Positions 13,311 to 47,181 of a DNA stretch of 64,000 nucleotides are shown here, in pieces; the stretch's first letter is position 1, and every line of letters starts with the position of its first letter. Position numbers and translations under genes: made by a program. The DNA lies in the NCBI RefSeq assembly GCF_003073045.1, contig NC_037594.1, positions 13,237,353-13,301,352 of the forward strand. The letters run 5' to 3'. Origin of the DNA: Pomacea canaliculata (lineage: Eukaryota). Under the pieces are notes generated by a model, which saw only the letters and a list, made by a program, of their open reading frames with translations, had not been told where the DNA came from and ran no database searches.

Positions 13311-13420
13311 AGGTTGAAAGAGCTGTAGCAGCATTAAATGGTCGTTTCTTTGGTGGGCGGATGTTAACAGCTGAGAAATATGATCAGGAAATGTTTAATT
13401 CCAATGACTTATCAGGGTGA
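13311..13420 (+). CDS. PUF60: PUF60 terminal coding exon (UHM C-terminus), stop TGA at 13418-13420
   Basis: Acceptor tgttttcag at 13302-13310; translation (E)VERAVAALNGRFFGGRMLTAEKYDQEMFNSNDLSG* vs human ...[34 protein letters not shown]. Confidence 0.92.
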
Positions 13421-18237: not shown

Positions 18238-18410
18238 TCATTTTCCTGCCTTGAGCTGCTGGCTGCTACCACTGCTGTCCAGATAGGTGAGGCATCCATT
18301 AGAGTCTCCAACACAGACTGAATTGCTGGTTCCGGCCCATGCTGCTGCATGTACCCAGTTTGGTGAGGACGACGTGTCACCTGGGATTGTGAATCTTGAA
18401 AGCAGCGTTA
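18238..18410 (-). CDS. TEP1: TEP1 terminal coding exon; stop TGA at 18240-18238 on the minus strand
   Basis: Translation ...[58 protein letters not shown] vs human C-terminus ...LFRCEGSVSCLEPWLGANSTLQLAVGDVQGNVYFLNWE*; the acceptor (cacaag) is approximate. Confidence 0.75.
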
Positions 18411-21400
18411 CATCCTTGTGTAGAGAAAGGAATCATTCAATCACTTAATTTCATGCAGGTGTGTTCAGGCTAGAGGTAAAGATGAATATACAACCATGCA
18501 TTCAGCAGGATCTACTGTCTGCTTGTTAAGCTCTGCCTTCCAGTGGCTTAAAGTCCATCTATAGTGGCAGATTCCCTGGTAACCAGATGTCTATTTGTTA
18601 CAAGTCATGGCAAAATAACAAATCAGATGTCTGCAGTTGGTGGTGGGCACTCTGACAATAAGTTGCTCTCTTAAAACCAAGAAACTTTGCTTTTCATGTC
18701 TTCTGTTAGACATCTTTAGAGTCTTGCCATTATTCATAATAAGAGAACATACATCAACTTGTGTGAGCTAACCTGTATTTTATTCTGGACAGCAACACTC
18801 CAAGTGGTAACCTGGCCATCTGTAGAAGTAGCAATAAGATGGTTGCCATACGAACTCAGACTGAGTGGCCAGCAGCTGAATGACTTCATCTTCATGTCAC
18901 TTTTTTCATTGCTAGTATCAGAGTCATAGCTGAAAGTAAATAAAACATAAGATGGGTTGGGGGCCAGCTGCAAATACGTAAGTAAATCTTTCAACAGGAG
19001 TTTATTAAATACAAAACCTACTGGAATACTAGTCATCAATAAGGACTGAAACATGAACACTGAAAGAACAAAAGCTTTGCTTGCTTGCAGAACATACAGA
19101 AAGATGGCTGCTAGTGCTAATGCCAATTACAGATAAATTGCGCCAGTTAATACTGTTCCTTCACTTTCAAACTGCTTGCCTAGGAATATCACAAGATCAA
19201 ATGTGAGAGAGGTGGAGTGAGGGAGACAGAATTCTGTCATGTTTAGATGTAAAAAGGCTTGTAATGATTGTCAATAATAGCAGTATTGCAGATTTCTAAA
19301 TTTCTTCCTTGGTATTAGTAGGGCAAAGAGCATTCTGTGGATAAGGATGCCCACATTTCTCTATTAACAACATAAAGCAAAGATCCATCTACTCACAAAA
19401 ACAAAAGTGAGGATGGTTGTTGCATTTCCGGCAACCAGCAGAAAAGCCTGTTTTCCCAAGAGGTGCCAAAGACAAAGGCATACGGGACTGACATCAAAGC
19501 AGGATCCCAAATCAGGCTGGTCACAGGTGCACTAATTTCACACTTGTCTTTTTTCCTGCACATCACATTTAGTTCACTACACCCTCATGTACTAAAATGC
19601 ATTCAAGCACAACTCTTTTAATATGCAATAATCATTAAATTAGTCTTGCAATCAGTAAGTGTATGTAATGACCAAAATAATGGTCATTTTGTTGTGTCAA
19701 ACCCCAGCAAGTCTTCATTAAGACGTGAAAGCCCAGTATGCTGAATATTACTAGTACATGCTTGCCTAAGTTGTTGTGTGGAAAAACTGATAAGAGCTGA
19801 CACTGAATTTGGCTTTCTTTTATCAAACTCTCTTAAAATTTTATACATAAACATTTGAGTAAAGGATTAAAGACTTGCCTGACAATAATGCCTTCTTTCT
19901 TGTGCAGAATTTCCCATAATACCATTGTCATGTCATTAGATGCTGTGACAAATCTGGTACTTCCTTTGTTTACGAAGCATGCTGCACTGATGCATTTATC
20001 ATGGGCCTGTGTAAGAATGCATATAATAATATCCAACAACAAACAAAAATCAAGGCACAGGAATTTACTGTGGTGCAGTTCCATAAACTTTATGCAATTT
20101 CACAATAGCTGTGGTGGTGCATGTCAGTGTGAACACTGTCAATCTCTTTCACTATGCTGACGTCTCCCCTTCCTCTCCTTCATTCCCCCCCATGCCTAAA
20201 GGAAAAAAAATCAGTGACTGCCTACTGATTACCTGCAAGTGCAAGGGTCTAAAGCCAAGTTCAGTCTAGAACCAGTTATGCTTCCTTTTTTGTAACACCA
20301 TTACATCAATGCATACAAATGTGTGTGTGAGTACAGGGAAGTTGGGGGTGTGTGGGGTGTCATGCCTGTGTACTTTTTTGTAAGTATATCTGTATCATCC
20401 TCCACTTACACATGTGTGCGATAGAATGCGTGTGTAAGAGCAGGGAAGAGGTTGGTGTTTTATGCCGAGTCAGAAACTAAGGCTATATCCGGGTCAAGCA
20501 GCCAGCCACATGCAGATGCCACATGCGGAGAAAGAACGTGCCTGAGACGAGATCTGAACCAGGACAGCCAATCGTTATTGTATTGGTGACAGGCGCTAAC
20601 TGCTGTGCCACTGGACCACGCGAACGAGCGAGATCTAATGCCTACAGAGACAGATGCTCAAGTGCATATATGCTACAACAGAAATTTCAGAACAGGAATA
20701 AATACAGCTAGATATGCTTCTCTTACAGCCTGCTACCAACCTTAAAGCTGTGGACACAAAAGAACCCTGCTGCAGCAGTGTGCTGCCAAATGCAGACACC
20801 TCCAGATCTGTATGAAAAAATAAATCTTTGTAAAAATATGCTTGTGGAAAAGCTGTTTCATTTATAACTTTCAATCTGTAGATACGAACTACATGGAGTA
20901 CTGCAGAGATGGGCACAAGCCATTGTCATTGTATTGACAGAGATGGTTTGTGATGATTTGCATAATAAAGTTAGCTTCTGAAATTAGCCATTTTAAACTC
21001 TCAATTGTGATGAAAACCCCAAATTAACATGAATGAAGCTCTTGTATTTGTGCATCAGTAAACTTATTTGTACATATACTGGTATGGAATTTCAATTTTA
21101 CCTGTCTGTGGTGAGAACAGTACACCTATTCAAGCTGGGAGAAATACAAGTGACTTCTGTCTCATGACTCTGACTGACTGAACTCTTGGTGGCCAGTTGT
21201 GGTGCCCAGAGTCTCACAGATAAATCTAAACTGGCACTCACAAGATGTCCCTGCTTGTCTGCCGCCACAGCAACCACTTTTTTGGAATGGCCTGACAGAC
21301 ACGCTACAGAATACGCCTGAAATACACGAGGATGTAGATAGCCTTAGACTTCCATCTAAGCTGTGGCATTCTAAAGGCATGATAAAATCTCAGTGTAGTT

Positions 21401-24400
21401 ATTTAATTAGTAATAATAATTAGAGTTATACAGCGCAATTCCTTGTGTGGATATGAGCTTGATGAGCTGCACATGACTACTACAAAGAAACATTGTGAAC
21501 TGTGTAACAAACATATGCATCAGACGTAGAGTTCAAGGTCATCAATGTGACAATTAACTATTTTCTATGTATAGTATGAATAGTGAGCTTGCGCTCATGA
21601 TTGGAGCAGAGAACAAGCACACTTCCATCCAAGTTTACCTCCTGACATTGAAACTGATGAAATAAAAACAGCCACCCACTTTAACACACTGTATTGTTAA
21701 AATATGTATTGTCATAAAACACAATTTCTTGGTCAAACAAGAAGTTTAAAGCTGTAAAGAGGTAAGATAAAAAATTGGATGAAAAAAAGACAGCTTGAAA
21801 AAGAAAGGGCATTAAAAAAATGGACATCACCTCTAGTGGTTTCCACAAGCGCACAGTGCCATCGTCGCTGCAGGACACCAATATAACGTCTGTGATATTC
21901 TGGCCCTTCTTCTTTGTGCTGCTTGCATCTGCAGTTGATCCCCCTGTTTCTTCCTCCTGCATCATCTGGACCCAGCTCTTTTCTTCCTCTCTCTCCTTCT
22001 CCTTATCTGCACAGGTGTGTAAAATCAAAAGGACACAATAAGACAATGTAAGTACATTTGAATAAAGACAAAAAAAGTATTACAATCAGAATAAATAGAA
22101 GCTGTATAACTATGGCAATGTTTGAGGAAAAAAGTTGATAAACATAAAGATAAACTGATTAACTCAATGAAATGATATAGATGATGCATAAAAATTATCA
22201 GACTTTCATGCCTCAAATTACATAAAATAAGCTAAAATTTGTACACATGCTTAACAGCATTTGGTGGCACAGTGACTTAAGCCCCTGTCACCACGACAGC
22301 AAGAATTGTGTGTGTGTGTGAGGGAGAGAGACTGCACATAAGTAGTTACGAATTGAATGATGGTGAATGAATTAGGTAAGATGCCTACTAATAAGTGGGT
22401 ACTTATGTAACCACCTTGAGAATGCCTTTGTTGGTGGGATGAGGTGCTTTATAAATAAACTATTATCAATATTATTTACTGTCACACAACTCAAAATGCA
22501 TCAAAGAGTTATAACAACTTACATGCTTCTCGTACTTATATGACTCAACTCACAGACAACGTCATTACCCATTTCCAAGATTACATTCTCTGGCTGAAGT
22601 ACATTATTCCTAATTTCTAACCAAACAGAGGTATGACCAACACTTGTAAACATATGTGTTCTACAGAAATGCTTTTAGTGCTGCTGTTACTGCACATAAC
22701 TGCATCCATTATTTGCACTCACCATCAAAGCCACTGCATTTGACAAAAATATCACAAGCATTGACTCTTTGAGTGTGTCCATACAGTGTTGTAATCTCAG
22801 TGCCTCGGTGGGACCACACCTTAACTTGACCATCACTGGATCCAGAAACTATACAACCAAACTGTAGATGCAAGAAAAATGATCTCATAAAATATTAGTT
22901 ATATCTAGGAATGGATTGTCATGATGACAGTCTCCCTTTTAAACTATGCAACAAAAATCTTGCACACATATAAGACTATTATGAGAAAGAGCTCTGCCCC
23001 TTACTAAAAATTAGGATGCTATGCATTAAGATCTAAAACATTTTGGAGCAAGTCTTTCAACAACAAAAAATGGAATTTGAAAGAAATTTACCTTATAAGC
23101 CATTGCATTTACGCTGGATGTGTGACCTGTCAACTTAAACTTTTCTTGTTGAGTTTTGAGGTCCCATACTTTGAGGTTAAAGTCGCTTGAGGCAGTGACC
23201 TGAACATGGAAGAGGACACTGCATTATGACAACAACAGTAACATTCCTGAACTGGACTTGGTTCAATTTGATTAATGTGGATTGCATGTCTTAACATGAT
23301 TGACACATGGTCCATAAGCTTGTACACATTCACTTGCTTCATCAACATGGCTGTCTGGTTGTACAACAGAATAATAAAGACAAAAATGTTAAAACTACTT
23401 TTATTGTCTCCTAATAATATCAATTTTATGCCTGCAAATGTGTCCAAATGGTTCTTTGTGTGATTAAAAATATTATTTTGTGTGAGCTTACATGAGAAAG
23501 AGCATGTAAGCTCAGTCTATGTACAGACTCACCATGAAGTCACTGACATTGGACCAGCTGCAGGCATTAATCCAATCTGCATGGCACCGGGTCAGAGTAC
23601 ACTCAGGTGCAGGACTGCTGTCCATTTGGCAGACCATCAAGTCCCATATTTTTACTGACTGTAAGACAGAATGCGGCATCAACAAGGGCGCTTGTGTAGT
23701 GTCTGCATTGTTGCTAGCAAGCACAATTATGTCTTGCTCACACTCACATAAACCCAACACACATACAATCTCTCTCTCTCTCTTCCCCCTCATCACAGGT
23801 ACAAAGTAAAGACAACCCTTAGCAATGTCAATTTCAGACTTACCATATCACGACTGGCAGTTGCAAGCTTTGTTGCTCCTGGTCCAAAGGTACAGCTTGT
23901 AACAGGAGCAGTGTGACCTTGCAATACTGCTAGTGGCTTCACTCTGACAAACACAGATACAATTTTCATTGCCTGTCTCTAAAGACGCTTTATGTAAATG
24001 TAAAATTGCATACTTCTAGATCCTAATTTCTGAACACAGATGGAAAGTGATTCTAAAGTGCTGCACTGTATTGTATGGAGTCTTTCTTTTACCACCATGC
24101 ACTCATCAGGTAACTGAAGACCTGGAATCTTGATACAACAACTTCACATCACACCTAAAAATGATTAGTGCTATCTATGAATCAAATATGGCTTTATTGC
24201 TTAAATTTTCCTCGCTATTACCAAGGCAGAATCATGAAGATGTAAAAAGAATTTCACTCACGGTCCAGTACTTTTCACTGGCTTGAATGAAAATAGGCAA
24301 CAAGTGCAGTCCTCAGAGGCAGTAGCCAAGAATTTTCTGTGAACAGTCACACTCAGCACTGGTTTGGTATGGCTCTCTATAGAACAGATTTTATTTCCAC

Positions 24401-27400
24401 TGGTGGCGTCCAGCACCTGGACAAGCAAGCACATCTCAATTTACTCTAAAACCAAGGGCGAGATGGGAGAGTAGGGGGTAGTTGGTCATATTTGTTTTCT
24501 CTCTGTTTATTGGTCAGGTACATGTGACCAATCAGGAGTAGATTGCTGGAATTGAGGTAGCTATTCGGGATAACCACAATAGTCGTGTTATCTGCGACAG
24601 TAAAAGAAAAAATATGAATAATCACCTGCACAGTGGTGTCATCAGAACCTGTGACAACATGGGCACTGTCATGGGAGAAGGTAACTGCTCGGACAGCCTT
24701 ACTGTGGGGTTTTGCCTCCCAGAGACACAAGCCTTCAGAAAATAATAAAAAAAAAAAACATAGAACAATAGGGCACAGCAACTAATACACAAGAAACATA
24801 AATGATATACAATCAAATAATCAACTTCTGGAAATAAGTCATGCCACTGGGATAGAAACATATTGGCACACTTCCCACAAAGCCAAAAAGAAAACTGAAG
24901 TTTAACTTAAAACATCTGGAAATGTTCCTGCATTATAATGGATCCCATTTTGACATCATGGCATGGCTGTTTGTTACAAACGTCATAGCGATGTGCATAG
25001 CCACTGCACTAATAGGCTGCTGCATCGCTATTTCTGAGTTTACCTTCATCAAAGAAGATGGGTTATAAGTTTTCTAGCAGTACACCTTTCATGTAGTGAA
25101 CTTACCTGTAGTGACATCAAAGACACGAACATAGCTAGAATGATACCCCACAGCCACAGCGGTGCCATCAGGAGACAGAGACACAGAAGTAGCTGGTCCA
25201 TTCTTTGTGGAACCAAGTATACCCAAAGGAATTCCCAGGTCACCTGACCACACCTGGAAAATTTGTATTCTATATGCTTTAGGGTCACTAAATGAGATGA
25301 GGTAATCAAAATGTGAATGCTGATTATCTATTGAAGTATACATATATATGCATTTATATATTTACATAATATCTAAAAAAAAATGTTTATTGCTAATTTT
25401 AGACTTGTTTTTCAAGATCTGTTGTATTTACTATCTTGTCATGAAGCCCTCAACTGACCTTGACTTTGTGGTCATCACTGGCAGTGATCAAGTACTGTCC
25501 TGTAGGGGAGAAGGTCAGCTTGTTAATAGGTGCTCCGTGGCCATGAACACTGCCCACCTGCACACCTTTGATTGCTGACCAGATCTTGACTTCTCCATCA
25601 AGAGAAGCAGAAGCAACATGGGAGCCATCATGAGAATATGCAACTGAACGGACAGACGAGATGTGTCCTCGAAGTACCTACCAGGGTAACAAAAAAATTT
25701 ATCTGTTAATGTTGAAACATCAGATAGGTTCTTTCTGCATAAATGAAAAACACCACCATTTGTTAAAATATATTTTATAAAAAACTAACAGGTAAACAAG
25801 AATTATTTATGGCATATAGTGAAAAATTCACATCAGTAAGAATAAAAAATAACCCCCAAGACCCTGTCCTAAATGTGAAAAAAAAAAATTGTAATTTTTT
25901 TCATCACTCTTCTTTACAAAGAGAGTCGATGTATCTTTGTGGCTGAGGTAGAAAATGAAAATTCCAAATAAGACGTACAAAACCAACCACAATATACAAT
26001 ATTGTGCTGACCACTATGTACAATCCAGAGCTGACCACCATACACAATTCAGAACCAACCATCACATATGATCCTGAGCTTACCAACATATACAATCTAA
26101 ATCCAATGAAGAAAATGAAGCAGAAAAGGAAGTCGGTTAGGAGGATTGTGTTATAATCTGTACGTTGTGGTCTTTTTACCAATAACTTTTAGTTAAATGT
26201 CAGAAAAATATAGCATGCTTCTTTTTTTTTCTTTCCCTTTAACAAAACCTCAATGTTGAACAAAAGATACTTACAGCTTTGCGAGTTTTGTGAAATATGT
26301 CATAAATCTTAATAGTGGTGTCCCAGTTGGCAGTCACAATCAGCTGGCTGTCAGGGTGGAAGTCAACATCATTGACTGGGCTGCAGAAAAGAATATTTAG
26401 TTATACTGTGTGCAGAACAAATTTGTGTGAGTGCAGCCTAAGGTTTTTTTTTTATTTTCTCTTACTTCTTGAACACTTTATTGTTTCTGGTAAAACATAT
26501 GAGAAGATTTTTACTATCGACAGCCCACCCATTGGCTATCTCGCCAGGAATGTCTTCAGTCAGTACCATCTAGCCTATTGTCCTTAGCAACAAGCACTTA
26601 ATTCTATCATAATCACCATCTACATTTTAATTATATTTCTTATGACAAATTGAGGTCCAACTAACCATTCCAGGCTGAAAGAGCAGATTTCTTCGCCAGA
26701 TTTGACATTCCAGACACGTACAGTGCAATCCCATGATGCTGAAGCCACAAGATTTCCTGTGCAGTCAGCAACACAAGCACTGACACATCGTGTGTGGCCC
26801 TTGAGCAGAGCAACCCTGTGTATAAATATTACATGAAATAGATGTGACCTCAAGTTTTATTTTATTGTACTAACACTTGGTAAGTCTTCATCACCAACAA
26901 TCATGTGCATAATATGGTTTTCTGTAGTGATAGCAGTTGTAATGGTATGAGTGACGTAATCAAAATTTTGAACCAATTTCCATAATTTTAATTTTGCTAT
27001 AAGTTGAAATGCTAATTCATGATGCAACAAAGTCAGTCATTTGAGGGAATTTTTTTTAAAAAGACAAGGGTTTCATTAAAGAAGCCAAATGTAAAATGAT
27101 TCACATTTATACAATTTAAAGTCTAAACATTAACTATCTTAACAGCGACTTCTTGTATTCATCACTGGAGTTTCCATGCACTCAGTTTGAGCACCAGCAC
27201 ATACCTGTGTCCATTCTGCACATCCCAGAGGCTCAGCGTTAAATCTTGAGAAGCACTACACAGGATGGCATTGCTCACAAAACAGACATCAGTAATGAAA
27301 TCGGAGTGGCCATGATAGAAACGGATCTCCTGTTTGAAGAAATATTAATCATCATCATTTGAGCAGACTCAGCATGCCATATTTATTCAAAAGAAGTGTG

Positions 27401-36400: not shown

Positions 36401-39400
36401 ATCGTCATCAGATCTTGTCTTTCACTTTCTGTGGCAAAATCTTTTTAAGGCCAATGGAAGCTTTTAATGCTGAACTTGGTTTTTCTAGTTATTTTGTTGA
36501 AAGCAAACAAGTCAATAAAATTCTTGTGCTCTCAGCCCATCCTGACTGCCCACATTTTAATCAGGATCGATCAATCTCCCGTCACCATGTCTGGGTTCCT
36601 GGAAAAGAATTGTCTGCCTGAATGGTGTTTTACACAGAGCCAGCAACTAAAACTATATCCCAGCAAGGCAGCTACCACTGTAAGCAGATGCTACATGCAG
36701 AGAAAGAACAGCATGCAAGAGACAAGAGCTGGGACAACCAACCATCCCTGTATTTTTTAAAAGTGCTAAAAGTTGCACCACTGGACCGTACAGCTTGTAC
36801 TTTGGAACATGGTACAAGTTTAGTAAGTTAAGAAATGCATACCAATTTATATGCCCTCCCATCTGCTCCACAGGAAGGTGATGCTAAGATTTTGACTGAT
36901 AAACACAGCTCACACCAGAAGGGAGCTACATCAAACATCAGGTGACTAGCAAACCAAGGGTGCCACCGGTTATTGCAGGTCAGAGTTACTCTTCCTAGGG
37001 GCTGGTGGTTTACTTGGCTTCCCTTATGACCAAGCTACGATGACTGGATCGAGTCAGATAAAGATAGTTTACATTTCTAACCTTACTAAAGCTACTTTTA
37101 CTTCAAGAAAACTTTTCTTCTTTTCACTGCCAATATATTTTGCATTAAGTTTTCATACTCTTAACACTTTTTTCAAGAAAACAACCATTTCCACAAAATA
37201 CACCAATAATAGAAATTTGTCTGAAACTTAATGAGCAAAAATTCCACGTTATCTGGTGGTATGTGGTCATGCCCACTGACATGTTAGCAATTAGTATTAT
37301 GCAGTAAATAATCAAATTTCACTTTGTCAGTACGAGTGCAAGCTAATATAGGGTACATCCCAGCTACACACATTAAACTGTACTGATGGCAATCTTTCCA
37401 TTTTTGTGGAAGCATTCTGACAACATTGCATACCTTGGTGTCAAGGATGAGACAGGTAGAGGTTTCTCTGGTGAACCAACTGGCACCTCTTTCTTCACGC
37501 TCTCCAGGAACAAGGGAGTTGACTCTTTCAGGCCAAAGATCTTGTCTATGTTTTCTACATGAATCAGCTGTCCCCCACTGCCGCGTTCTGCAACAAACCT
37601 GCACACACGGGATTAATGTCAATAAAACCTCATCGAGAACTTGTCACTTTGCTTGTCAGTACTCTGCAGATCAGAATGTTTATCTATCATCTGCTTATAT
37701 GAAACCTATCAGAGCTGAGCTCTTTGTTCTTGACTGGATGAGCACATCAACCTTGATATTCTTTTCTCTACCATCAGCAAGTGAAGTCATGACAGTAATA
37801 ATATAAAACAGAATACAGAGTATGCATGACAACAGAATATATTATGTGTTATTGCAGCACTCTAGTAGTGTACAGAGTAGAATGTCTTTGTTGTAAAGTC
37901 GGCGTTGAACGACGCGGCTGCCCCTTTCCCACGCTGGCTGCATTCGTGGTAGCCAACCTTGAACTGCCCACCTGTGGCCACTGGTCTATTGTTACACCCG
38001 CCTGAGAACTTGGGGGAAACAATGACCAGACAGGGCGAGGGGAGTGGGGGTGGATGGCTCTAGAATGTTCGAGGGTAGGGAAAATAAGTAGCGGGGCTTA
38101 TAGTGGTGTGAGACCTTTTTGAATTTGGAAGGAAGAGGAGAGAGACAGCAGGCCAGCCGCTGAGAGAAACTGAATTAAAAACTTCAGAGTGTGTGGAAAT
38201 TCCATCTTTGTGTTATTCCTGTACAACTAGCCCAACCCTACATAGCCATCAGAGACTGACGTGTTGGTTGCATTTCATGTATACACATACATTCCTAACT
38301 ATAACATATATTTACTAGATGTATTCTACTTAATACAATGCATGACAACAGAACACATACATTATAACATACACAGACCTACATGTAACTACAATAAACA
38401 TTTTCATTTTATATATTTTAGATGCAATGAGTTACTTTTCACACTTTATGAGGAAACATTTTAGATTTTAGACAAAGACATACAAGTCCGAGCCCAAATA
38501 ATGTTTAGGGTTAATGCTAAGAAGCGTAAGTTACCTGAGAATGGCATCGCTGAAGCCTGATATGTAGATGTCATTTTCATGTTCAGGTGTGATGTCAGTA
38601 TCAAACCTGGGGAACATACCATCAAGAAATTGTTCAGAGAAGTTCAACAGTGAGACATTCCTTGCTGCTTTTTACAAAGTCCTGCTTTGGAATCATAAAT
38701 CAACAAAATCTTTAGAAAGCTCAAGAACATGAACAAGAAGACAAACCACAATGCATAATATTTGATATATTAATTTCAATAAACTGCTTCACGTTAGCTG
38801 ATAACACTAAAGGCAAAGAGCATCACAGACTAGTGGCTGTAAGGGCACAAAACGGAGGTTTAGTGTTTGTAGGGCATAGCATATGGTAGGAAGTGCCCAA
38901 GTTCCCCTTCTGCCTCTCCTTTTTCCTTTCCACTTTTACTGCACAGCTGCTGTGTGGGCAAAGGTAGTTTTTTAGTCACAAACTCAAGCAGGTGCTACCA
39001 ATGCACTAACTACCAGGCACTACGACAGATTCTCCATAACAGTAAGCTAATAAGCTAAAATAGCACCACTCATGAAAATCTTATTTCCTTCTGCATACAT
39101 TTGATCAAAGTCATAATGCCTCAGAGATAGCCACAGTAACACATGTAGTAACACATGTAACATTGTACCACATTTAGTGAAAAAATGACTCATACTTGCA
39201 GCCACTGCCACTGGTACAAATGCTGACATACAGCAGGTTTGGGTTAACCAGACGGCGATATGGCCGAAGGAAGTCTCCTATCATGGTGCCAACCACAGCA
39301 CTAGGGTTGAGATCAAATCCCAGCACTACGATGTTGTCCACCTATCATAAATTCAGAAGAAAATAATAGCTGAATGTGCCGACAAAATCCATGACTTAGA

Positions 39401-42400
39401 AAGCAAATATTCCTTTGAATTTTTAATGTAAATGCAACAAAAAGTGAACAAACTATGAAAAAATGTGTAGAAATTAATCTTAACAAAACAACTCTGGTAT
39501 AAAGAAACTTTACAGTTTTTCTCCCGCATACACACATAAACACGCAGATGAAGATACACACAAACACAAACCTGTATTTTGTCTCTTAGTTTCTCAAACA
39601 ACACCCAATATGGGAAATTGTGCACCATCTCCTTTTTCTGCGAAAGACACAAAATATTTTTTTCTTATGCAGAAGATCTGCAATATATATTCTCATTTAT
39701 CATCTTTCAGTTGCACTGCCTCTCTTTCCAGAGTGGATGATATGTACTGTAATGATAATTAATAAATATTTATCCATGTGACTATCATAAAATGAGATAT
39801 GAAAAGGAAAACATTTATTTTGTGCAAATGGTAGGACAGGCCAAAAAAACCTGTTAAAACTCCAAAATGAATGTCAAAAGAGCAAACCAAAATAGCCACA
39901 TGAAAAGTAACATATACATTACACAAGACACTGCAAATACAAAACAAATTAGAAGATAAAACAGGAAAGGTTTGAAAGCTTGAATGTACTCACCTTGCGG
40001 TCATCCCAGGTTTGTAAAGGTTCTGCTGAACTCATCTGGCTTATTGATGTGTTCAACAGATGCTGCAAGTTGTCCAGGATGGTGCCCTTCTGCAACTGCA
40101 CACTACAGCATGACTCACCATCATGCAGAACCAGCTCACTCTCTTCACAAGAGTACTTGCACATCAGAGCCAGCAAAAGAGACACCTCTCTAACCTGAGC
40201 ACACACAAACATAAGCCTGGATGCAATAATTTCAATATAGAGATAACAGTGTGTGTGTGAGGGGCAAGGGGGCATGAAGAGGGTGAGAAATCAATTAGTC
40301 TTTCCACTTCAACCATCTTCACCCCAAGTGATATATGCAAACGGTCAACCTCTTTCCCTTTTTAAAAAACCTACAATCTCAGCTCAATAAAAAAGTTTTT
40401 ACATATCCAAGAAATCAGAAGTCATATGCTACTAATACCAAAGCAAAAGAGACAAAATCTAAGGACCTCATTTCTAAAAATTCATCTAAGTACTCCACCA
40501 ATAAAAGTACAAAGCTGTAAACTTCTAGGTGTGATGATTGATAACACTATGTTTTGGTCCCAACATGTATTAGCCATAAGCAAAATTGTATCAAAGAAAG
40601 CCTATCTAGAATTAAAGACTTCTTTGATTCTCACTCTCAGTAACTCTTCCACACAGTCCACATTCAACTGACCATTGATTATGCATCCACTCTGTGACAC
40701 TCTAGCAGAGCTTCGATGAGGCCTCTTGTAAGTTTTTGAAAGAAAGTGATCAATTCTATCTTTCTCTCTTATGTAACACACACACATGCATGAAGGCAGC
40801 AACACGCTTAGAAGGATATGCACATGAAGGCATGCCTCTATCATTATTATTAATGAAGTACACACACTTGCTATGGAGACATGATTTCATTTCAACTTTT
40901 GAAGGTAGGTATGAAGTTAGTGACTGTAGACTTACTGTTCGAGGTTTACCAAGTCCTCTGGCTGCGGAACATGGTGTTTGTGTTCTTGGATCCATACTGC
41001 AGATGATGACAGTGCGACCTTTGATGGGCTGTACATTGTAAACTGTGGCTATCTTCACTGCAGTATCCAGTGCCTTGCGATACCGTTGGAGAAGAGCCTT
41101 GTCATACATCGTTTCCCTGATGAGCATAAGAGATAATATTTATCATCGAGAGACCACAGGTATAGTAGTCAGAAGTCAAGACACTATTTAGATATTTTTA
41201 ATAATTTTATTAAATACAACACTATGATATTTTGGTTATGTAAACTGTTTACATTGAGGACACTGATGCACTAGGTACAGGTTAAAGCATACTTACTTTG
41301 TGCCACTGCTAGCTTTTTTCTGTAGTTTCTTCTGCCACCACTGGGGGGCAGCTCCACCTCGACCTCGACCTTTGCCTCTTGTGCCACGACTTCCCCTCCC
41401 CCTTTTCATGTGTCCTTGAAATTTTGAAGCTCCACTTTCTCTAGTGGCAGCAACAGCTTCATCAATGATGGCTTTCTCTGTCAAACATTACCCCATTTAT
41501 AATCATAGCCCTCATATTAATATATACAAGTTTAGGGAACAAAGTGATATTAAGAAAAATCATTGTCATATGGCATACAACAGTTCACATCTGAAGGAAT
41601 GCCACTCTGATTTATTATTATGTAACAAAATACAGGATGAAGTGTTGTTTCAGAAAAATAATTTTCATGGGGTTATTAGTGACAGTAACCCTCCATAAGA
41701 GACTCAAAAGTGTAAAAAAAATCACGACCTGAAAAGATTTTATATGCATGCAGGTAAACAAACATAATTACAAAAACATACTTCACACATTCTACCTTGG
41801 TTTGGTAGTTAATGGTGGAGGTTGTGGCACTCCTATATCAGTATCATCAAGAACACTACAGTGGATTTAAGTGTGTCATGTGTCACTTACGTGTCTTGTC
41901 AAATTCCTTCTCCATGGTGTTTAACACCTCATAAGCTGAGAAGAACCTGAAGGGAAACTGCTTGCTATTGATCACTTGTTTCTGCAAAGAAAGATGCTTA
42001 TGTACAGTACTAATTTCCTGATAGTTTTCTGCTGTCTACTACAGTTTTGAGAGATGAACTATGAACTAACTTTTGTGTCTATGCAGCAGATGCGTTAAGT
42101 TCCACTACTATTTCAAAGATACAACATTTGGTGCATTGAAACTAGAGGAATTCATCAGTAAAACATACATGTACATTCTATAACCTTCAGAAATACATAC
42201 TTCATTTGTCAGTCTCCGGATGACCATGTTGTGGTGTTTATCCGATATCCCCGCTTTGATCAGATTCCGCAGATTTCTCAACATTGCCATGAATGGCAGC
42301 TTCTTGTGATCTATGAACAGAACCCCACCCCACCCCAAAAAAAATTCTATACTGTGTAGGCAGACACTTTTTCAGAATTATCATCTTGTAAGTCAGGTTG

Positions 42401-45400
42401 ATTTAACATTGATCAACTCTGAATCAAAATCTTTTATTATCTCTTCCAGCTCACTTTTCTACTTCCAACACCCAGCTCTAGTGGGTAACAACGCTATACA
42501 ATGAACCACACTCTTTCCAATATAGCTTCATCCTGCTAGCTTGTTGCAGGACAAAATATCAGTTTACTGTGCCTGAAGCTCATACACATAATCGTCACCT
42601 GCAAACATTTAGTGCAAAATTTTACCAACAGCAGCATCCTTGGCAATAAAGTAAAAGACACACAAGTGACGGTGATATGTACCCAGCAAATCCTCCCATG
42701 TCTTTGCTTTGTTGCCCTTCAGGGACACCTGCGTCTCCCAGGTTTCTGGGATGGGAAGTTTCATGCGCTTGCCTGCTCGCTCTTCTTCCCATACACCAGG
42801 CAGCCGACTGCAGTAAAATTCTTCAGGTGTCTTGGGATATCTTTGAACAGATTCAGATGTTGCAAACATGAGTGTGCAGTTTCCTGCAAAGTAAGCCTGC
42901 CCACAGCATAAGACTCAGCTATAACTTCATAAGGAGTCTTCTCACTGCTGCAAACCTTTTCTAAACTAAAATATGTCCTAACATATATCATAAATATAAA
43001 ATACACATATCAGATTTACCAGCTATAATGTTAAATTTTACAAGCTTATGTCATCCTTATTTTAAAAAGTATCATTAGGTGCCTCTCTTTCTGTGAGTGC
43101 AATTCCCTCAGCAAATCCGTGAATGATTCATTCTATATTTTGCACTATCTAAATAACAAGCAAAAAGCACAGGTTAGAAAAGAAGAATTTAAGAAAGGTA
43201 GCTTTAACATCAAATGAACAGATGTTATTTTCCCTTGAGAAAGAAACATCTGTACATGTAAACTTGAGGCATGGATGATCATATTCCATTTCTTCTAGTT
43301 GTTGGTGAGGGAGAATGGGTATAATAATTAGAGGGTTTATAAAAGAGTTAGTTACAGAGGGCTTATAAAGAAATGGTAATAATTATATATAGGGTTTAGA
43401 AAAAGGCAGTAATGAAGTAATCAGTTCAGATTAAGGTCACGTACTTCTTGCCAACAAGGCACATGACATGTTCAGGAGGCTCCACAATGTGTAGCTTGCG
43501 GATAAGTTGCTTGAGTGTGAAAGTTTTGCGTTCTTGTTCTTCTTTTGTCTCACTCTCCTCATCATACTTCACACCACGGACCTGTGCAACATGCCCAGCA
43601 CTTAACTATTACTCCAAAAGACTGTCATGCCATTTTACCAAAGGAAAAAGTTCATGACATTTGGTCAAAAATCTCCTAAGCTATAGTTTCCTGCTTTCAT
43701 AATTTATGACAAATTTTCTCACCAGATGCAAAATATTTGTTTAAAACCCATTATGCACTTTAAAATTATTTGAAAAATCATATCTGATGATATGAGAAAA
43801 AAACTGCTTTAAGTACTCTGTTGCAGATGCTAAGCTTGTCACTTTTTTTATGGAGTGTGATACTTTCATCTAGTTGCTTGTCTTGATATTATCACTAATA
43901 TTGTATTTCCTTTCAATATAACATAAGCTCTTCATTTGGATTCTGCTTCCTTTATTAGGTATGTAGAGTTTTACAACTGTGCTTTTAAAGAAAGTAATTG
44001 TTAACTAGAAGCTCATTTTACAGATATACCCTTTTAAATGCTGGATTTTCACCATCACTGCCATCATCACCATCATCATCATTGTCAGTATCATCATCAC
44101 TGTGACTCTTGATTTTATCACCACTTCGTTTTGTTCCTGCTTTTATCAGTTTTCCGCCTCTCCCTTTATCTTGACCAGCATCCTGACTTGCAGATTTCTC
44201 TTTGCTCTCACTTTTCTTGTTCTTCTTTAAGCGAGACTTCTCCTTATTGTACTTGGCTGCAAAATGCAAAAGATAAGCATTAAAACTTACATCAGTTCAT
44301 TCATCTTTCTTCTGCAGTGTACGTAACTCTTCAGTTTTTCTGGTAACACGAAGACTTACTAGGGGACATTTGATTTAATGTCTGTAATAGAAAAGATGCA
44401 GAAATGTGTAACTAGATCATTATTTATCATATCAAGAGCTGTGCATCACTACAGTATCCTCCAAACAGCGAGGTGCATAAGATCGAAGGGATCTCATACA
44501 ACACATAAGATAATGAACCAGATTGATGATGTTGATGCTAACAAACTCTTCAAGCTTAAACATATTAGAACAAAATAACAAAATTTATATACAAAACAGT
44601 TATACTAATTTTTGCAGAAACGATTTTTTACTAAAAGTGTAATACTTCTCTAGAACTGCTTAGAGCTGGTGACCTCATGACATAGCAACTCCTTTAATTA
44701 AAACTTCTGAACCAATGAACTCATCAAACCCCTCAACCTACCAACCATGTTAGAACATGGATATCTGTCATTCATACATGCTCCTAGAAGTCACGTCCAT
44801 GACACTATATTAGAACATAGATATTTTCATTCATCCATGTTCCTTTATGTCATGTTCCTTTATATTGCATTAAAACATCCTCCATTCATACATGCTCCTA
44901 TTATTCTCTAAATGGCTGTAGCTTTAATGACCTAAGATTCTCTATTTGATGACAGAATCACATTTTTACATGACAGAGATTTAACTTCTTTCTGCCCAAG
45001 TCCAATGTCACAGAAAAGGTCTTTTGTACTGAAACAAAGTAACCCAATTATTTATTTTTATTCTTCCAGTGGGCCCTTAAAGAAAACTGATTTACATTGT
45101 ATCTGTTATCCTTTTAAATAAGTTTTCTAATGAATTAGTTTGATGACATGGTTTGCCTTACCAAGCTGGTATTTGTCAAAGTCGAGAAATTTTACTGTCA
45201 TCACCTTACGCAGTGCTGCTGGTAAAGCTCCAAAATTCAGCTTCTTATCACCAAAGACCTGAAAATAAGATAAAATACAAAAGTCATAGCAAGCAGAACA
45301 ACAGAAAACAGCACACTTTTAAGCCATTAACCTTCTACTTTTACCCTCTAAATGCTATTGATGTTTCTATGTTATCTTCCCTAAATATGACAATTAAGAT

Positions 45401-47181
45401 TCTAAAAGGGAATTTCCTGTATAATTTTGCCAGCACAAAGTGAACATTTTTGCATTTAAAGGTCAAATTAAAACTGCTAATAAAAAACCTAATATCTACC
45501 TGATACATTTCTGCAACTTCTATCCAGTCTGAGGGCAGCATGATCGTGCTGGAGTAGTACTTGCGAAGGTAAGGACGGCACTCCAGGTAATTGGATGCCA
45601 AAGCAAGCAAAAAATTGGAAGTTGTGCGAATATTCAGCTCTCGCCTTGAGTAGAGGGCAACCTGACAAGAATAAATAGGTAGCATTTCCATTTTGGCATA
45701 GAAAGACATAAAGGCCCATACCTATTGCATAATTTGTTGCTTGCTAAACAAAAGAAAAGAGCTCATGAAATTTTATAGGATGCTTAATGTCCTGTTTTAC
45801 TGTGTCTACTATAACCATTGGAATCAAATGGCTTTCTCTCATTAAAATAAACAGTTTGCTGGGTTTGGTGATATAAAGATACTAAGATATAAGCATCCAC
45901 AAAAAAAAATCACACCATATTAGCTTTACCACTAACTCCAGACAATATAAGCTGCCACATCATTAGCATCAACTCTGTCTGAAATAGGTAACATGCCTTT
46001 AGCACAAACTCTGGTTTATATAAGCTGCTGTATCTTCATTTTTTAAAAATCTGGATCCCATAAACTGTCGCACTTTAAACATAAGTTTTGAATCTTAACT
46101 TTCAAACTGGTTGCCATACCTTTAGCACAAACTCTGGATCATACCAGATGATGCTTTCACTCATGATTAACAGCTGCTGACGAGCCTGGTCTCGTAAATT
46201 ATGGAAGTTTGGAGAGCAAAGCAGAGAGGCACTTACAGCATTAATTAATCCATTCTGAAAGTGCAGGTTCATTCCCAAATATTAGCTGCTTGATCATTTC
46301 ATTTTCAGCCTACTTTCAAGTGATTAAATGCTTAAGCTAAAAAAAAACAAACAAAAAGAAAATGAAACTGTTTCATGTCATATCAGCTTGAAAAAAGTTT
46401 TCTAATCAAAATGACAAACTATAAATATTAAGATTTAAAAAAAAATTAGCACAGATACAGTGGTATGAGTATAATGAATATGTGTGACAATGTTAAAGCT
46501 GTACAGAAAACTTTGTTCCATGGAAACTGTTATAAATTAAATAAAAAGACAACAAGTTGGAAAAAGCCTAAAATATAATGTAAAAAGGAGACCGTAAAAA
46601 AATGCTCAAACCTTCAGTCCATTCAGGTTAACAATAGGCTGACTCATGCTAGTTACTAGTTCTGAATCTTGTGTCGGATAGATGAATGCTGGGATCTTCA
46701 TCTCTACATCGTCCACAGTATCAGAGAAGAGCCCATACTCTGGCAGTTGGGTGGTGTATTTCATCAATGCTGCTGTTTCATCATCATCTATTTCTCTTTG
46801 CACCTTAATTTTTTTCTTCTTACTTATTCCCAATTTGCATCTTGCACTATCTTCCTTCTTTGGAGATTTTACAGCACTATTCTGTTTCTCTCTCTTTGCT
46901 GCAGAAGATCCTGCATATTTCATAGTTGGGCCATGGCTAGATGAGACACCCAGTTGACCAGGACTGATGTGTGATGTGAGTTGCATAGGTGAGTGTAGAC
47001 TCAAATACGGTGACTTGAGCTTAAGATTGATTTCATGCTTGGTGGATGATAAAGCTGATAATGTAGATGAGGAGACTAAGAGACTAGGCCCACTTGTCAC
47101 TTGTTTAGCAGACAGAAAGCTCAGATTTGATTGTTCATCTTTTGTATTCTTTACATTTCTTGCTGTTAAAAATGGATTCAT
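18238..47181 (-). CDS. TEP1: TEP1 orthologue (telomerase-associated protein 1 / vault protein component), whole CDS span, more than 45 exons. Domain order: lineage-specific N-terminus, TROVE, vWA-like, DUF4062, NACHT NTPase, WD40 array.
   Basis: Successive minus-strand exon translations match human TEP1 blocks in order: [54 protein letters not shown] ~ ASLYARQQLNVRNVANNILAIAAFLPACRPHLRRYFCAIVQLPSDWIQVAELYQ; [42 protein letters not shown] ~ [42 protein letters not shown]; [20 protein letters not shown] ~ [20 protein letters not shown]; [30 protein letters not shown]...[11 protein letters not shown] ~ [30 protein letters not shown]...IDLRWGVTEEE; [13 protein letters not shown] ~ [21 protein letters not shown]...GLEEFGQ ~ YPCEWGGV...GLEEFGQ; a Walker A motif and multiple WD repeats follow. 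ATG at 47181-47179, TGA at 18240-18238. Confidence 0.88.
18784..27612 (-). CDS. TEP1: TEP1 WD40-repeat exon array (about 16 exons, approximate). Examples: 27497-27595, 27200-27340, 26668-26820, 26285-26390, 25460-25680, 25135-25260, 24625-24730, 24340-24430, 23840-23945, 23520-23670, 23130-23230, 22740-22860, 21828-22020, 19890-20000, 18784-18890.
   Basis: Minus-strand exon translations carry canonical WD motifs: [27 protein letters not shown]; [37 protein letters not shown]; [34 protein letters not shown]; [25 protein letters not shown]; [20 protein letters not shown]; [21 protein letters not shown]; [20 protein letters not shown]. Individual boundaries were not all verified. Confidence 0.75.
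20455..20620 (-). mobile_element. tRNA-derived SINE, copy B (same family as 588-752), inside a TEP1 intron
   Basis: Minus-strand reading gtggtccagtggcacagcagttagcgcctgtcacc...ggttcagatctcgtctcagg...ggctggctgcttgacccggatatagccttagtttctgactcggcataaaacacc aligns along the full length of copy A. Confidence 0.65.
24465..24580 (+). repeat. Unclassified interspersed repeat (MITE-like family R2), copy 1
   Basis: ttattggtcaggtacatgtgaccaatcaggagtagattgctggaattgaggtagctattcgggataacc is about 75% identical to 33115-33235 (ttcattggtcatttctggtcaatcaggagtggacagcagaaattgagaggtagctaatagggtaatc). It contains an internal tggtca...tgacca palindrome. Confidence 0.5.
25983..26106. repeat. Minisatellite, about 24-bp unit in about 5 copies, in a TEP1 intron
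   Basis: Units accaaccacaatatacaatattgtgctg / accactatgtacaatccagagctg / accaccatacacaattcagaacca / accatcacatatgatcctgagctt / accaacatatacaatctaaatcc. They underlie the spurious 92-aa minus-strand ORF 25904-26182. Confidence 0.7.
27790..29285 (-). CDS. TEP1: Block of four TEP1 exons between NACHT and the WD40 array (approximate: about 29177-29285, 28940-29030, 28500-28640, 27790-27975)
   Basis: Translations [36 protein letters not shown] (human ARLCLPDGPLRTAAKRCYGKRPGLEDTAHILIAAQLW); [29 protein letters not shown] (human KTCDADASGTFRSCPPEALGDLPYHLLQSG); [39 protein letters not shown]; ...[60 protein letters not shown]. Confidence 0.65.
29695..29884 (-). CDS. TEP1: TEP1 exon
   Basis: Translation (G)[62 protein letters not shown](G) vs human LTVDQLHGVLSVWRTLPKGTKSWEEAVAAGNSGDPYPMGPFACLVQSLRSLLG; donor GTAAGT. 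The phase of its junction with the next exon is unresolved (see findings). Confidence 0.75.
30456..30588 (-). CDS. TEP1: TEP1 exon (winged-helix-like region)
   Basis: Translation [44 protein letters not shown] vs human VSERLRTLPATVPLLLQHILSTLEKEHGPDVLPQALTALEVTRSG; donor GTCAGT. Confidence 0.82.
31239..31331 (-). CDS. TEP1: TEP1 exon (NACHT-associated helical region)
   Basis: Translation [31 protein letters not shown] vs human MRLLLVKRESGRPLYLRLVTDHLRLFTLYEQ; 93 nt; donor GTGAGC. Confidence 0.88.
31616..31792 (-). CDS. TEP1: TEP1 exon (NACHT)
   Basis: Translation [59 protein letters not shown] vs human RCVHLVLSVSSDAGLGETLEQSQGAHVLALGPLEASARARLVREELALYGKRLEESPFNNQ; 177 nt, phase 0/0; donor GTGAGC. 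Confidence 0.9.
31983..32760 (-). CDS. TEP1: Two TEP1 NACHT exons (approximate: about 32690-32760 and 31983-32130), including Walker B
   Basis: Translations ...[20 protein letters not shown](Q) and [51 protein letters not shown] vs human GQTQVLIIDGADRLVDQNGQLISDWIPKKLP; donor GTAAGT. Confidence 0.7.
32213..32512. repeat. Foldback / inverted-repeat structure: arm 32213-32268 and arm 32455-32512 (about 80% complementary, roughly 55-bp arms, roughly 185-bp loop), plus a direct duplicate of the arm end at 32513-32560
   Basis: Reverse complement of arm 1 (gtcatgtcatctggtaaagactacaagaaagaaaaattttactaaccaaacatggtat) vs arm 2 (gtcatgtcatctagtaagtacttgaagaaagaaatcttactaccaaacatggtat). Both arms carry accagatgacatgac. 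Confidence 0.55.
32290..32350 (-). repeat. Partial R2-family copy (reverse orientation), lying in the loop of the foldback element
   Basis: Reverse complement gggatggagggggtgagtttattttgtgttctctgtgttcattggtcatttctgaccaaatgg matches the 5' part of copy 2. Confidence 0.45.
32806..32898. repeat. Decaying tandem repeat, about 3 units of 22-35 bp (agtaggactgcNagcNtatagcc), in a TEP1 intron
   Basis: agtaggactgccagcttatagcctggcaaacacaa / agtaggactgccggtctatagcctagc / agtaggactgcaagcctatacc. Confidence 0.65.
33115..33235 (+). repeat. Unclassified interspersed repeat (family R2), copy 2
   Basis: See copy 1; the 5' part gggattggggttgagtaggttgattctgtgttctacttgttcattggtcatttctggtcaa also matches 32290-32350 in reverse complement. 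Confidence 0.5.
33447..33622 (-). CDS. TEP1: TEP1 exon (NACHT)
   Basis: Translation [58 protein letters not shown](K); acceptor ttccag, donor GTGGGT. Confidence 0.85.
33770..33801. repeat. (CT)n(CA)n dinucleotide microsatellite in a TEP1 intron
   Basis: ctctctatctctctctctcacacacacacacaacaag read directly. Confidence 0.9.
33837..34019 (-). CDS. TEP1: TEP1 exon, NACHT Walker A (P-loop)
   Basis: Translation [61 protein letters not shown] vs human ...HGRLSLVTGQSGQGKTAFL; 183 nt, phase 0/0; donor GTGAGT. Confidence 0.9.
34346..34466 (-). CDS. TEP1: TEP1 exon (pre-NACHT)
   Basis: Translation (N)[40 protein letters not shown] vs human [37 protein letters not shown]; donor GTATTG. Confidence 0.88.
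34571..34684 (-). CDS. TEP1: TEP1 exon
   Basis: Translation (K)[37 protein letters not shown] vs human [37 protein letters not shown]; acceptor tttag, donor GTAAGA; 114 nt. Confidence 0.85.
34893..35135 (-). CDS. TEP1: TEP1 exon, DUF4062 C-terminal half
   Basis: Translation [80 protein letters not shown] vs human [59 protein letters not shown]...ALIYFRDSSF; 243 nt. Confidence 0.9.
35814..35990 (-). CDS. TEP1: TEP1 exon, DUF4062 N-terminal half
   Basis: Translation (R)[58 protein letters not shown](R); acceptor ccacag, donor GTAAAA; its phase is continuous with the previous exon. Confidence 0.9.
36625..36790 (-). mobile_element. tRNA-derived SINE, copy C (same family), inside a TEP1 intron
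   Basis: Plus strand ggtgttttacacagagccagcaactaaaactatatcccagcaaggcag...gttgcaccactggaccgtac equals the reverse complement of copy A. The spurious ORFs 36622-36831(+) and 467-790(-) give parallel peptides ([23 protein letters not shown]), confirming homology. Confidence 0.65.
37434..37598 (-). CDS. TEP1: TEP1 exon preceding DUF4062
   Basis: Translation [54 protein letters not shown](R) vs human FIAEHGASHLLEHVGQMDKIFKIPPPPGKTGVQSLRPLEED; donor GTATGC. Confidence 0.85.
38536..39643 (-). CDS. TEP1: Block of three TEP1 exons (approximate: about 39578-39643, 39197-39349, 38536-38607)
   Basis: Translations [22 protein letters not shown]; [48 protein letters not shown] (human VDRVILLGQSMDDGMINVAKQLYWQRVNSKCLFVGILL); [24 protein letters not shown] (human YLSTDLNPNDVTLSGCTDAILK). 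Confidence 0.7.
39994..40194 (-). CDS. TEP1: TEP1 exon (vWA-like region)
   Basis: Translation [67 protein letters not shown] vs human NYALLLIGMMITRAEQVDVVLCGGDTLKTAVLKAEEGILKTAIKLQAQ; 201 nt, phase 0/0; donor GTGAGT. Confidence 0.82.
40926..42305 (-). CDS. TEP1: Block of four TEP1 exons (approximate: about 42201-42305, 41889-41984, 41297-41479, 40926-41117)
   Basis: Translations [37 protein letters not shown]; [31 protein letters not shown] (human AKSVIHSRQFPFRFLNAHDAIDALEAQLR); [60 protein letters not shown] (Arg/Gly-rich); [43 protein letters not shown]... (human YDGEMLNRYRQALETAVNLSVKHSLPLLPGRTVLVYLTDA). All have canonical AG/GT boundaries. Confidence 0.75.
42683..42896 (-). CDS. TEP1: TEP1 exon 7 (TROVE)
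   Basis: Translation [71 protein letters not shown]; acceptor gggcag, donor GTACAT. Confidence 0.88.
43445..43581 (-). CDS. TEP1: TEP1 exon 6 (coordinates within 2 nt)
   Basis: Translation [46 protein letters not shown] vs human ...EKKNPPRFTLKKLVQRLHIHKPAQHVQALLGYRY; donor GTACGT. Confidence 0.8.
44030..44256 (-). CDS. TEP1: TEP1 exon 5 (highly charged, Lys- and Asp-rich insertion)
   Basis: Translation (A)[75 protein letters not shown]; its phase is consistent with exons 4 and 6; the human region (AKYNPRKHRAKRHPRRPPRSP...) is also basic. Confidence 0.75.
45162..45258 (-). CDS. TEP1: TEP1 exon 4 (TROVE)
   Basis: Translation [33 protein letters not shown] vs human LAEGDKNKLVPLPACLRTAMTDKFAQFDEYQLAK; acceptor ttttcag, donor GTAAGG. 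Confidence 0.88.
45500..45661 (-). CDS. TEP1: TEP1 exon 3 (TROVE domain core)
   Basis: Translation [54 protein letters not shown]; acceptor cag, donor GTAGAT; 162 nt, phase 0/0. Confidence 0.9.
46120..46254 (-). CDS. TEP1: TEP1 exon 2
   Basis: Acceptor tttcag; translation [45 protein letters not shown] vs human KMALLSLLCSTLVSEVNM...EICRELALLEPEFILK; donor GTATGG; 135 nt. Confidence 0.8.
46612..47181 (-). CDS. TEP1: TEP1 coding exon 1 (190 codons, low-complexity Ser/Lys-rich lineage-specific N-terminus)
   Basis: ATG at 47181-47179, preceded by an in-frame stop; translation [59 protein letters not shown]...NLNGLK; donor GTTTGA (minus strand) just below 46612; 570 nt, phase 0. It has no counterpart to the vertebrate N-terminal TEP1 30-aa repeats. 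Confidence 0.7.

Follow-up and report, generated by a model that had tools for sequence, protein, structure and literature searches.

Human telomerase protein component 1 (TEP1) is a 290-kDa protein (PMC550661). In mice, loss of Tep1 causes vault RNA to leave the vaults and become destabilized, and TEP1 is dispensable for telomerase (PMC2193651). According to a 2026 preprint, the DUF4062 domain is a TIR-like NADase; human TEP1 is active inside vaults and was the only active NADase among the human DUF4062 proteins (bioRxiv 10.64898/2026.05.01.722283). Here, we analyse a 64,000-nucleotide (nt) stretch of contig NC_037594.1 of Pomacea canaliculata, the golden apple snail (hereafter, the window, to which all coordinates refer). 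We are highly confident that its minus strand carries a single intact orthologue of TEP1, the telomerase and vault protein. The predicted product follows the domain order of vertebrate TEP1 and is similar in size (2,671 amino acids (aa), against ~2,600 aa for the vertebrate protein).

Gene model and domain architecture

Stop-to-stop translation of the minus strand across the span first assigned to the gene (18238–47181) gives a dense run of short TEP1-like open segments, in which numerous WD40 blades can be read along with a TROVE motif, a DUF4062 motif and the P-loop GKSGSGKS. Two more TEP1-like segments lie below 18238, at ~17971–17870 and 16004–15879, the second ending in ...GDTLGNIYFLTWQH followed by a stop. 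Homologues from two protein database searches were placed in the window by tblastn, and exon boundaries were determined with a purpose-written spliced protein-to-genome aligner that uses GT–AG introns in all three phases. Four references were aligned: a Saccostrea protein (P0003), an environmental TEP1 fragment (P0127), a Lingula protein (P0117) and a Batillaria protein (P0121). These fixed most exon boundaries and agreed wherever they overlapped; for junctions outside their coverage, all frame- and phase-compatible acceptors and donors were enumerated. Micro-exons of 1–20 nt from the homologue-guided alignment were discarded, as they arose wherever a reference lacked a segment.

The resulting model, a prediction from sequence and homologues, comprises 53 coding exons (see table), in keeping with the more than 45 given in the preliminary description. 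Its frame is open throughout. The coding span measures 31.3 kb rather than the 29 kb first estimated. Of its 52 introns, 51 are GT–AG and one (intron 51) is GC–AG; the shortest measures 124 nt and the longest 1,865 nt, and the median length is 348 nt. The G+C content of the window is ~38%.

The spliced product has an N-terminal disordered region followed by TROVE, vWA-like (DUF5920), DUF4062/TIR-like, STAND/NACHT NTPase, winged-helix and APAF1-like domains and WD40 propellers, all in one open frame over the 53 exons and in TEP1 order; in the Pfam analysis, the NACHT and winged-helix (HTH_NWD1) models scored just under their curated cut-offs. The earlier identification as TEP1 is borne out by TROVE, DUF5920, DUF4062, nSTAND1, APAF1_C and both TEP1-specific propeller families, which occur in that order and with scores well outside what chance would give. 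The pairing of TROVE with an NTPase is likewise recovered, with TROVE at 347 bits, nSTAND1 above its cut-off, NACHT at E 7.7e-5 and Walker A (GKSGSGKS) and Walker B-like (LVLFLDG) motifs present. The propeller region spans ~985 aa and ~21 blades, with the TEP1-specific C-terminal propeller last. The claim that every vertebrate block is present holds for the order of the domain blocks, but is slightly overstated: NACHT falls just below threshold and no TEP1 N-terminal repeat family appeared among the Pfam matches at E ≤ 0.01 for aa 1–1686, nor did TRF find an array in exon 1. Such N-terminal 30-aa tandem repeats are found in mammalian TEP1 and are known as a trait of vertebrate members, not of the whole family.

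Within TROVE, exon 10 encodes an RGG-rich loop (aa ~590–606) at a variable position of the domain. The oyster Saccostrea (P0003) has a similar loop; the Octopus fragment and several other homologues, among them the environmental TEP1 fragments, have none.

The first 190 aa, encoded by exon 1, are a fast-evolving, lineage-restricted Ser/Lys-rich segment. Among 1.84 billion representative proteins, exon 1 has four weak relatives, all of them short first-exon fragments, and no full-length protein relative. Because all four begin with MN(F) and end with GLK|V, they support both the start codon at 47181 and the exon 1 donor. An in-frame stop lies upstream of this ATG (47241–47239). An acceptor-like ttttacag at ~47230 suggests an intron in the 5′ untranslated region.

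Orthology, the NADase domain and alternative readings

The TROVE-to-DUF4062 half of the protein matched 510 proteins, of which those with names were called 'telomerase protein component 1' or 'TROVE domain-containing'. For the NACHT–WD half, the top matches were a Batillaria protein carrying DUF4062 and the TEP1 propeller families (E 1.5e-161) and a Lingula 'telomerase protein component 1-like' protein (E 3e-94), whereas a 'NACHT domain- and WD repeat-containing' protein reached only E 3e-25, which upholds TEP1 over NWD1 or another NACHT–WD protein as the best match. The best named matches of both halves, in a comparison covering proteins of up to ~1,450 aa (an apparent index limit, with full-length TEP1 entries outside it), were telomerase protein component 1 or 1-like of molluscs (Saccostrea, Octopus), a brachiopod (Lingula) and amphioxus (Branchiostoma). 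Identity to the model was 53% for Saccostrea (aa 106–844), 60–62% for Batillaria (vWA–DUF4062 and NACHT parts), 48% for Lingula and up to 74% for Branchiostoma (TROVE core).

Both TEP1-specific propeller families (second and C-terminal) and the catalytic Glu of the TIR domain are shared with vertebrate TEP1; the snail protein differs in its Ser/Lys-rich N terminus, in the RGG-rich and Lys/Asp-rich loops of TROVE and in a Leu at the position of human R908. For the TEP1-like proteins of other invertebrates (Saccostrea, Batillaria, Lingula, Branchiostoma, Octopus), most entries are partial or mis-joined, whereas the snail model is complete. The Batillaria attramentaria entry (P0121, a hypothetical protein) itself appears mis-joined: most of NACHT is missing from it, it has no counterpart of exon 47 or exon 49, and it is unfit as a full-length reference.

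A single TEP1 chain, 11gz_A ('Telomerase protein component 1'), is present in the PDB. It matches snail aa 901–1115 with 216.8 bits and 47% identity, and corresponds to the human TIR/DUF4062 construct of bioRxiv 10.64898/2026.05.01.722283. In the human domain, E1008 is the catalytic residue, R908, R954 and R976 line the pocket, and an R908A substitution lowers NADase activity (bioRxiv 10.64898/2026.05.01.722283). We mapped these residues onto 11gz_A by spacing and aligned 19 homologues. Snail E1013 corresponds to human E1008, and two of the three pocket arginines are kept, as R959 and R981.

Modules of this protein also occur in other proteins. Ro60 and Tetrahymena p80 share the RNA-binding module of TROVE and a vWA-like domain with snail TEP1, and solved TROVE-domain proteins (9l5y, 9kop) match it weakly (E 2.4e-7). 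Ro60 is a protein of ~540 aa with TROVE and vWA only, and both it and p80 end after the vWA module, whereas snail TEP1 adds a NADase, an NTPase and ~21 WD40 blades. These ~1,800 further residues rule out Ro60 (TROVE2) as the identity of the gene. NWD1, NWD2, NPHP3 and bacterial Swarozyc place DUF4062 beside a STAND NTPase as snail TEP1 does, in several cases followed by WD40 or TPR repeats, but they lack the TROVE/vWA module; an NWD1 or NWD2 identity is ruled out by TROVE and DUF5920 in the same reading frame. Since both architectures exist as stand-alone proteins, the locus might instead hold two adjacent genes, one of the Ro60/p80 type and a separate DUF4062–NACHT–WD40 gene of the NWD1/NWD2 type, and the many database fragments with TROVE only and the weak HTH_NWD1 match fit such a split. 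We consider it extremely improbable. Exon 16 joins exon 17 in compatible phase, and the join calls for neither a stop nor a start signal. Single homologous proteins bridge TROVE and NACHT (P0127, of 1,076 aa, P0002 and P0001) and the vWA-like domain and WD40 (P0121), which argues for one gene, not two. The TEP1-specific propeller families score above cut-off, and NWD-named proteins match far more weakly.

The extent and integrity of this single TEP1 gene are open to two further objections. Exon 51 ends in the gene's only non-GT donor, AAG|gcagga (18248–18249, −), and reading through past QQLK at 18250 adds AGK before a TGA at 18240–18238, within five codons of the exon. If that non-canonical donor were unused, the gene would truly end at 18238, and exons 52 and 53 would be relics or part of something else; a minor read-through isoform ending there is conceivable. 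An end at 18238 is nevertheless very unlikely. Splicing from 18250 to 17971 keeps phase 0, and enumeration turned up no GT donor of matching phase at the end of exon 51. The Batillaria homologue is contiguous across the exon 51/52 junction (blastp, model aa 2508–2633), reading ...HQLKVHASHITG..., with HQLK|VHASH at the junction, against ...QQLK|VHSGVVTS... in the snail. A 35-nt bridging exon between exons 51 and 52 (18192–18158) was rejected, as the GC donor reproduces the Batillaria sequence instead. Exons 52 and 53 cover the whole Pfam model Beta-prop_TEP1_C, which scores 66 bits against just the C-terminal fragment and 143.7 bits against the whole protein. Because these in-phase exons complete the C-terminal propeller, we place the end of the gene at 15876, 2.4 kb past the earlier span; the gene is thus complete, as first claimed, but only once extended from 18238. 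The snail C terminus appears to resemble that of human TEP1. The other objection, that this is an unexpressed or decaying copy, draws on the few weak splice sites (two acceptors, in front of exons 49 and 51, and the GC donor of exon 51) and on the absence of exon 47 from the Batillaria model. It is barely plausible for a sequence that stays open for 8,016 nt over 53 exons, with 51 GT–AG introns and one GC–AG intron, conserved catalytic and nucleotide-binding motifs, compact introns and no processed-copy features.

Several points weigh against reading the locus as an intact TEP1 orthologue. Exon 47, the donor of exon 48 and the acceptors of exons 13, 49 and 50 are provisional. Exon 47 was added because a direct join of exons 46 and 48 is out of phase; it has the best splice scores among the phase-compatible candidates and encodes the WD-like SGGVCIWQ. 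The Pfam NACHT match lies 3.7 bits under its curated cut-off, although the overlapping nSTAND1 match passes. In the NADase pocket, the human R908 position is Leu913 in the snail (codon 35952–35950, −); Leu is found there in three unnamed homologues as well, and Arg in Batillaria, Lingula, amphioxus and four teleost fishes. At the Rfam gathering threshold, the window yielded neither a vault RNA nor any other Rfam family. There is a small chance that snail TEP1 would be regulated unlike the mammalian protein, through a GC-donor read-through isoform without the last blades and through Leu913 altering NAD+/NADP+ handling.

By analogy with mammalian TEP1, the TROVE/vWA module would bind a small RNA polymerase III vault RNA and recruit it into the MVP-built vault, and the NACHT and WD40 parts would, like their counterparts in other STAND proteins, mediate nucleotide-dependent oligomerization and docking. 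Snail TEP1 is most likely a vault-RNA-binding NADase subunit of vaults, a role for which we infer RNA binding, vault residence and catalysis from its relatives.

Neighbourhood, repeats and coordinates

The neighbouring gene encodes the splicing factor PUF60 (half pint) and lies on the plus strand, with its 5′ end outside the window. Spliced alignment to P. canaliculata XP_025095071.1 gave 568 of 569 identical residues over aa 132–700 in 12 aligned blocks, the single difference coming from a 3-nt aligner micro-exon. This identifies the genome, described at first only as invertebrate-like, as that of the gastropod P. canaliculata. PUF60 and TEP1 are convergent, tail to tail; their stop codons lie 2.4 kb apart, and candidate poly(A) signals of the two genes are interleaved at 13.5–15.7 kb.

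The TEP1 introns had been described as loaded with lineage-specific repeats. This is overstated for the 64-kb window, to which all repeat figures apply: the introns are short, sensitive self-comparison (eight pairs) shows 1,987 of 23,290 intron bases (8.5%) repeated elsewhere in the window, and TRF places five short arrays within the gene. An element of ~165 bp resembling a short interspersed nuclear element occurs in three copies of 70–78% identity, one near the 5′ part of PUF60 (591–750) and two in TEP1 introns 47 (20452–20619) and 16 (36623–36787); ARAGORN found no tRNA-like head on it. Intron 16 also contains ~1.1 kb (36012–37115) that is its own reverse complement at 60% identity overall, with arms (36012–36231 and 36883–37115) at 72%; it looks like a foldback-type element. 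Inverted arms are likewise present in intron 22 (32236–32383 and 33115–33264).

Upstream of TEP1, the sequence at 47380–47500, 200–300 bp from the ATG, is CA/TG- and CT-rich and of low complexity. Rfam searches at E ≤ 1 gave two chance matches (mir-297 and sno_ZL1) in the CA/CT-rich stretch 47401–47602, and no tRNAs were found in the window. A degenerate reverse-transcriptase fragment at 50309–50784 (−; Pfam RVT_1, E 0.0055, under cut-off), adjacent to an open reading frame with a VIVPLLKKSDPK-type motif, is probably a decayed long interspersed nuclear element. No protein-coding gene was recognized in 47300–64000 (G+C 0.42–0.47), where Pfam on the ten longest open reading frames, together with one in intron 11, returned only the sub-threshold RVT_1 match; short-exon genes would escape this search.

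Table. Coordinates of the TEP1 model and neighbouring gene. Alignment, spliced alignment; enumeration, splice-site enumeration.
Feature	Position	Strand	aa	Content and basis
TEP1 coding span	15876..47181	-	1-2671	ATG 47181, stop codon 15878-15876; 53 exons, coding sequence 8,016 nt
PUF60 / half pint	1323..13420	+	132-700	alignment
TROVE (PF05731)			191-656	347 bits, cut-off 23; E ~1e-103 to 4e-103
DUF5920, vWA-like (PF19334)			687-868	39.7 bits, cut-off 27; directly after TROVE
DUF4062 (PF13271)			905-998	57.9 bits, cut-off 24.7
nSTAND1			1134-1334	36.8 bits, cut-off 27.1
NACHT			1167-1334	23.0 bits, E 7.7e-5, cut-off 26.7 (below)
HTH_NWD1			1393-1509	22.7 bits, cut-off 27 (below)
APAF1_C			1517-1632	32.1 bits, cut-off 22.8
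WD40			~1680-2600	11 stretches
Beta-prop_TEP1_2nd (PF25047)			1991-2206	270 bits, cut-off 89
Beta-prop_TEP1_C (PF25048)			2597-2669	143.7 bits, cut-off 32; full length
Exon 1	46612..47181	-	1-190	Ser/Lys-rich N-terminal region; upstream in-frame stop, first-exon homologue fragments
Exon 2	46120..46254	-	191-235	TROVE start; alignment to P0003, Pfam TROVE
Exon 3	45500..45661	-	236-289	TROVE; tblastn, alignment
Exon 4	45162..45258	-	290-321	TROVE; tblastn, alignment
Exon 5	44030..44256	-	322-397	Lys/Asp-rich loop within TROVE, variable in all homologues; alignment
Exon 6	43445..43581	-	398-442	TROVE; tblastn, alignment
Exon 7	42683..42840	-	443-495	TROVE; tblastn, alignment
Exon 8	42201..42310	-	496-532	TROVE; tblastn, alignment
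Exon 9	41891..41981	-	533-562	TROVE; tblastn, alignment
Exon 10	41297..41477	-	563-622	RGG-rich variable loop within TROVE; alignment
Exon 11	40936..41116	-	623-683	TROVE end; tblastn, alignment
Exon 12	39994..40194	-	684-750	DUF5920 / vWA-like; alignment, Pfam
Exon 13	39572..39637	-	751-772	vWA-like; acceptor 39637, 39631 or 39628, all in frame; references differ
Exon 14	39196..39341	-	773-820	vWA-like; tblastn, alignment
Exon 15	38535..38606	-	821-844	vWA-like; tblastn, alignment
Exon 16	37434..37598	-	845-899	vWA-like end and linker; alignment
Exon 17	35814..35990	-	900-958	DUF4062 / TIR-like NADase start; L913 at human R908 position
Exon 18	34893..35135	-	959-1039	DUF4062; R959, R981, catalytic-position E1013 conserved
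Exon 19	34591..34704	-	1040-1077	TIR-like domain, C-terminal part; alignment, 11gz_A match
Exon 20	34346..34466	-	1078-1118	PDB 11gz match ends here; alignment
Exon 21	33837..34019	-	1119-1179	STAND/NACHT NTPase start; Walker A GKSGSGKS read in sequence
Exon 22	33447..33622	-	1180-1237	NACHT; alignment, Pfam
Exon 23	31983..32136	-	1238-1289	NACHT with Walker B-like motif; alignment, enumeration
Exon 24	31616..31792	-	1290-1348	NACHT; alignment, enumeration
Exon 25	31239..31331	-	1349-1379	alignment, enumeration
Exon 26	30456..30588	-	1380-1423	winged-helix region (HTH_NWD1, under cut-off); alignment, Pfam
Exon 27	29695..29884	-	1424-1486	winged-helix region; alignment, enumeration
Exon 28	29177..29286	-	1487-1523	sole strong phase-compatible acceptor
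Exon 29	28946..29034	-	1524-1553	APAF1_C-like helical domain; enumeration, Pfam
Exon 30	28526..28640	-	1554-1591	helical domain; alignment, enumeration
Exon 31	28295..28400	-	1592-1626	helical domain; alignment, enumeration
Exon 32	27795..27972	-	1627-1686	linker to WD40 region; alignment, enumeration
Exon 33	27496..27591	-	1687-1718	first WD40 blade; enumeration
Exon 34	27205..27329	-	1719-1759	WD40; alignment, enumeration
Exon 35	26666..26815	-	1760-1809	WD40; enumeration
Exon 36	26275..26380	-	1810-1845	WD40; alignment, enumeration
Exon 37	25459..25677	-	1846-1918	WD40; tblastn, enumeration
Exon 38	25106..25253	-	1919-1967	WD40; alignment, enumeration
Exon 39	24626..24732	-	1968-2003	TEP1 second propeller start; alignment, Pfam
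Exon 40	24262..24416	-	2004-2054	WD40; strong phase-matched sites
Exon 41	23844..23943	-	2055-2088	WD40; enumeration
Exon 42	23533..23658	-	2089-2130	WD40; alignment, enumeration
Exon 43	23092..23199	-	2131-2166	WD40; alignment, enumeration
Exon 44	22723..22861	-	2167-2212	WD40; enumeration
Exon 45	21831..22006	-	2213-2271	acidic insert, then WD40 blade; acceptor by site strength and phase
Exon 46	21102..21316	-	2272-2342	WD40; alignment, enumeration
Exon 47 (tentative)	20741..20807	-	2343-2365	WD-like; restores frame; not in Batillaria model
Exon 48	19884..20006	-	2366-2406	WD40; donor 19884 or 19875
Exon 49	19397..19542	-	2407-2454	weak acceptor; Batillaria 'SCEG'
Exon 50	18773..19028	-	2455-2540	acceptor 19028 or 18929; 130-codon open frame favours longer form
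Exon 51	18250..18414	-	2541-2595	GC donor (gcagga) at end
Exon 52	17870..17971	-	2596-2629	TEP1 C-terminal propeller; beyond earlier span; tblastn, alignment, Pfam
Exon 53	15876..16004	-	2630-2671	ends ...GNIYFLTWQH and stop; beyond earlier span; Beta-prop_TEP1_C positions 1-73 of 73

A gastropod TEP1 among known vault components

Sea-urchin vaults and genomic homologues of TEP1 and VPARP were reported in 2005 (PMC550661), and a survey of MVP evolution described TEP1 as ubiquitous among vault-bearing eukaryotes (PMC3762200). Among molluscs, MVP is abundant in mussel gill (PMC5302490), and vault RNAs are listed for Lottia gigantea, as they are for the annelid Helobdella (PMC8824774). With vault components of invertebrates and molluscs already published, the gene has little value for the use first proposed for it, that of anchoring the question of whether this lineage has vaults. 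Snail TEP1 is a gene of an ordinary and familiar kind, and the genome that contains it is public, RefSeq-annotated and published at chromosome level (PMC6129957). Given that annotation, and an XP_ accession for the gene next door, TEP1 is almost certainly predicted there already.

The practical value of this work lies in a complete, hand-checked 53-exon gastropod model, the other mollusc entries compared here being partial or mis-joined. Conservation of the catalytic Glu of the recently described TEP1 NADase in a mollusc is consistent with vault TEP1 having had an enzymatic role since early times.

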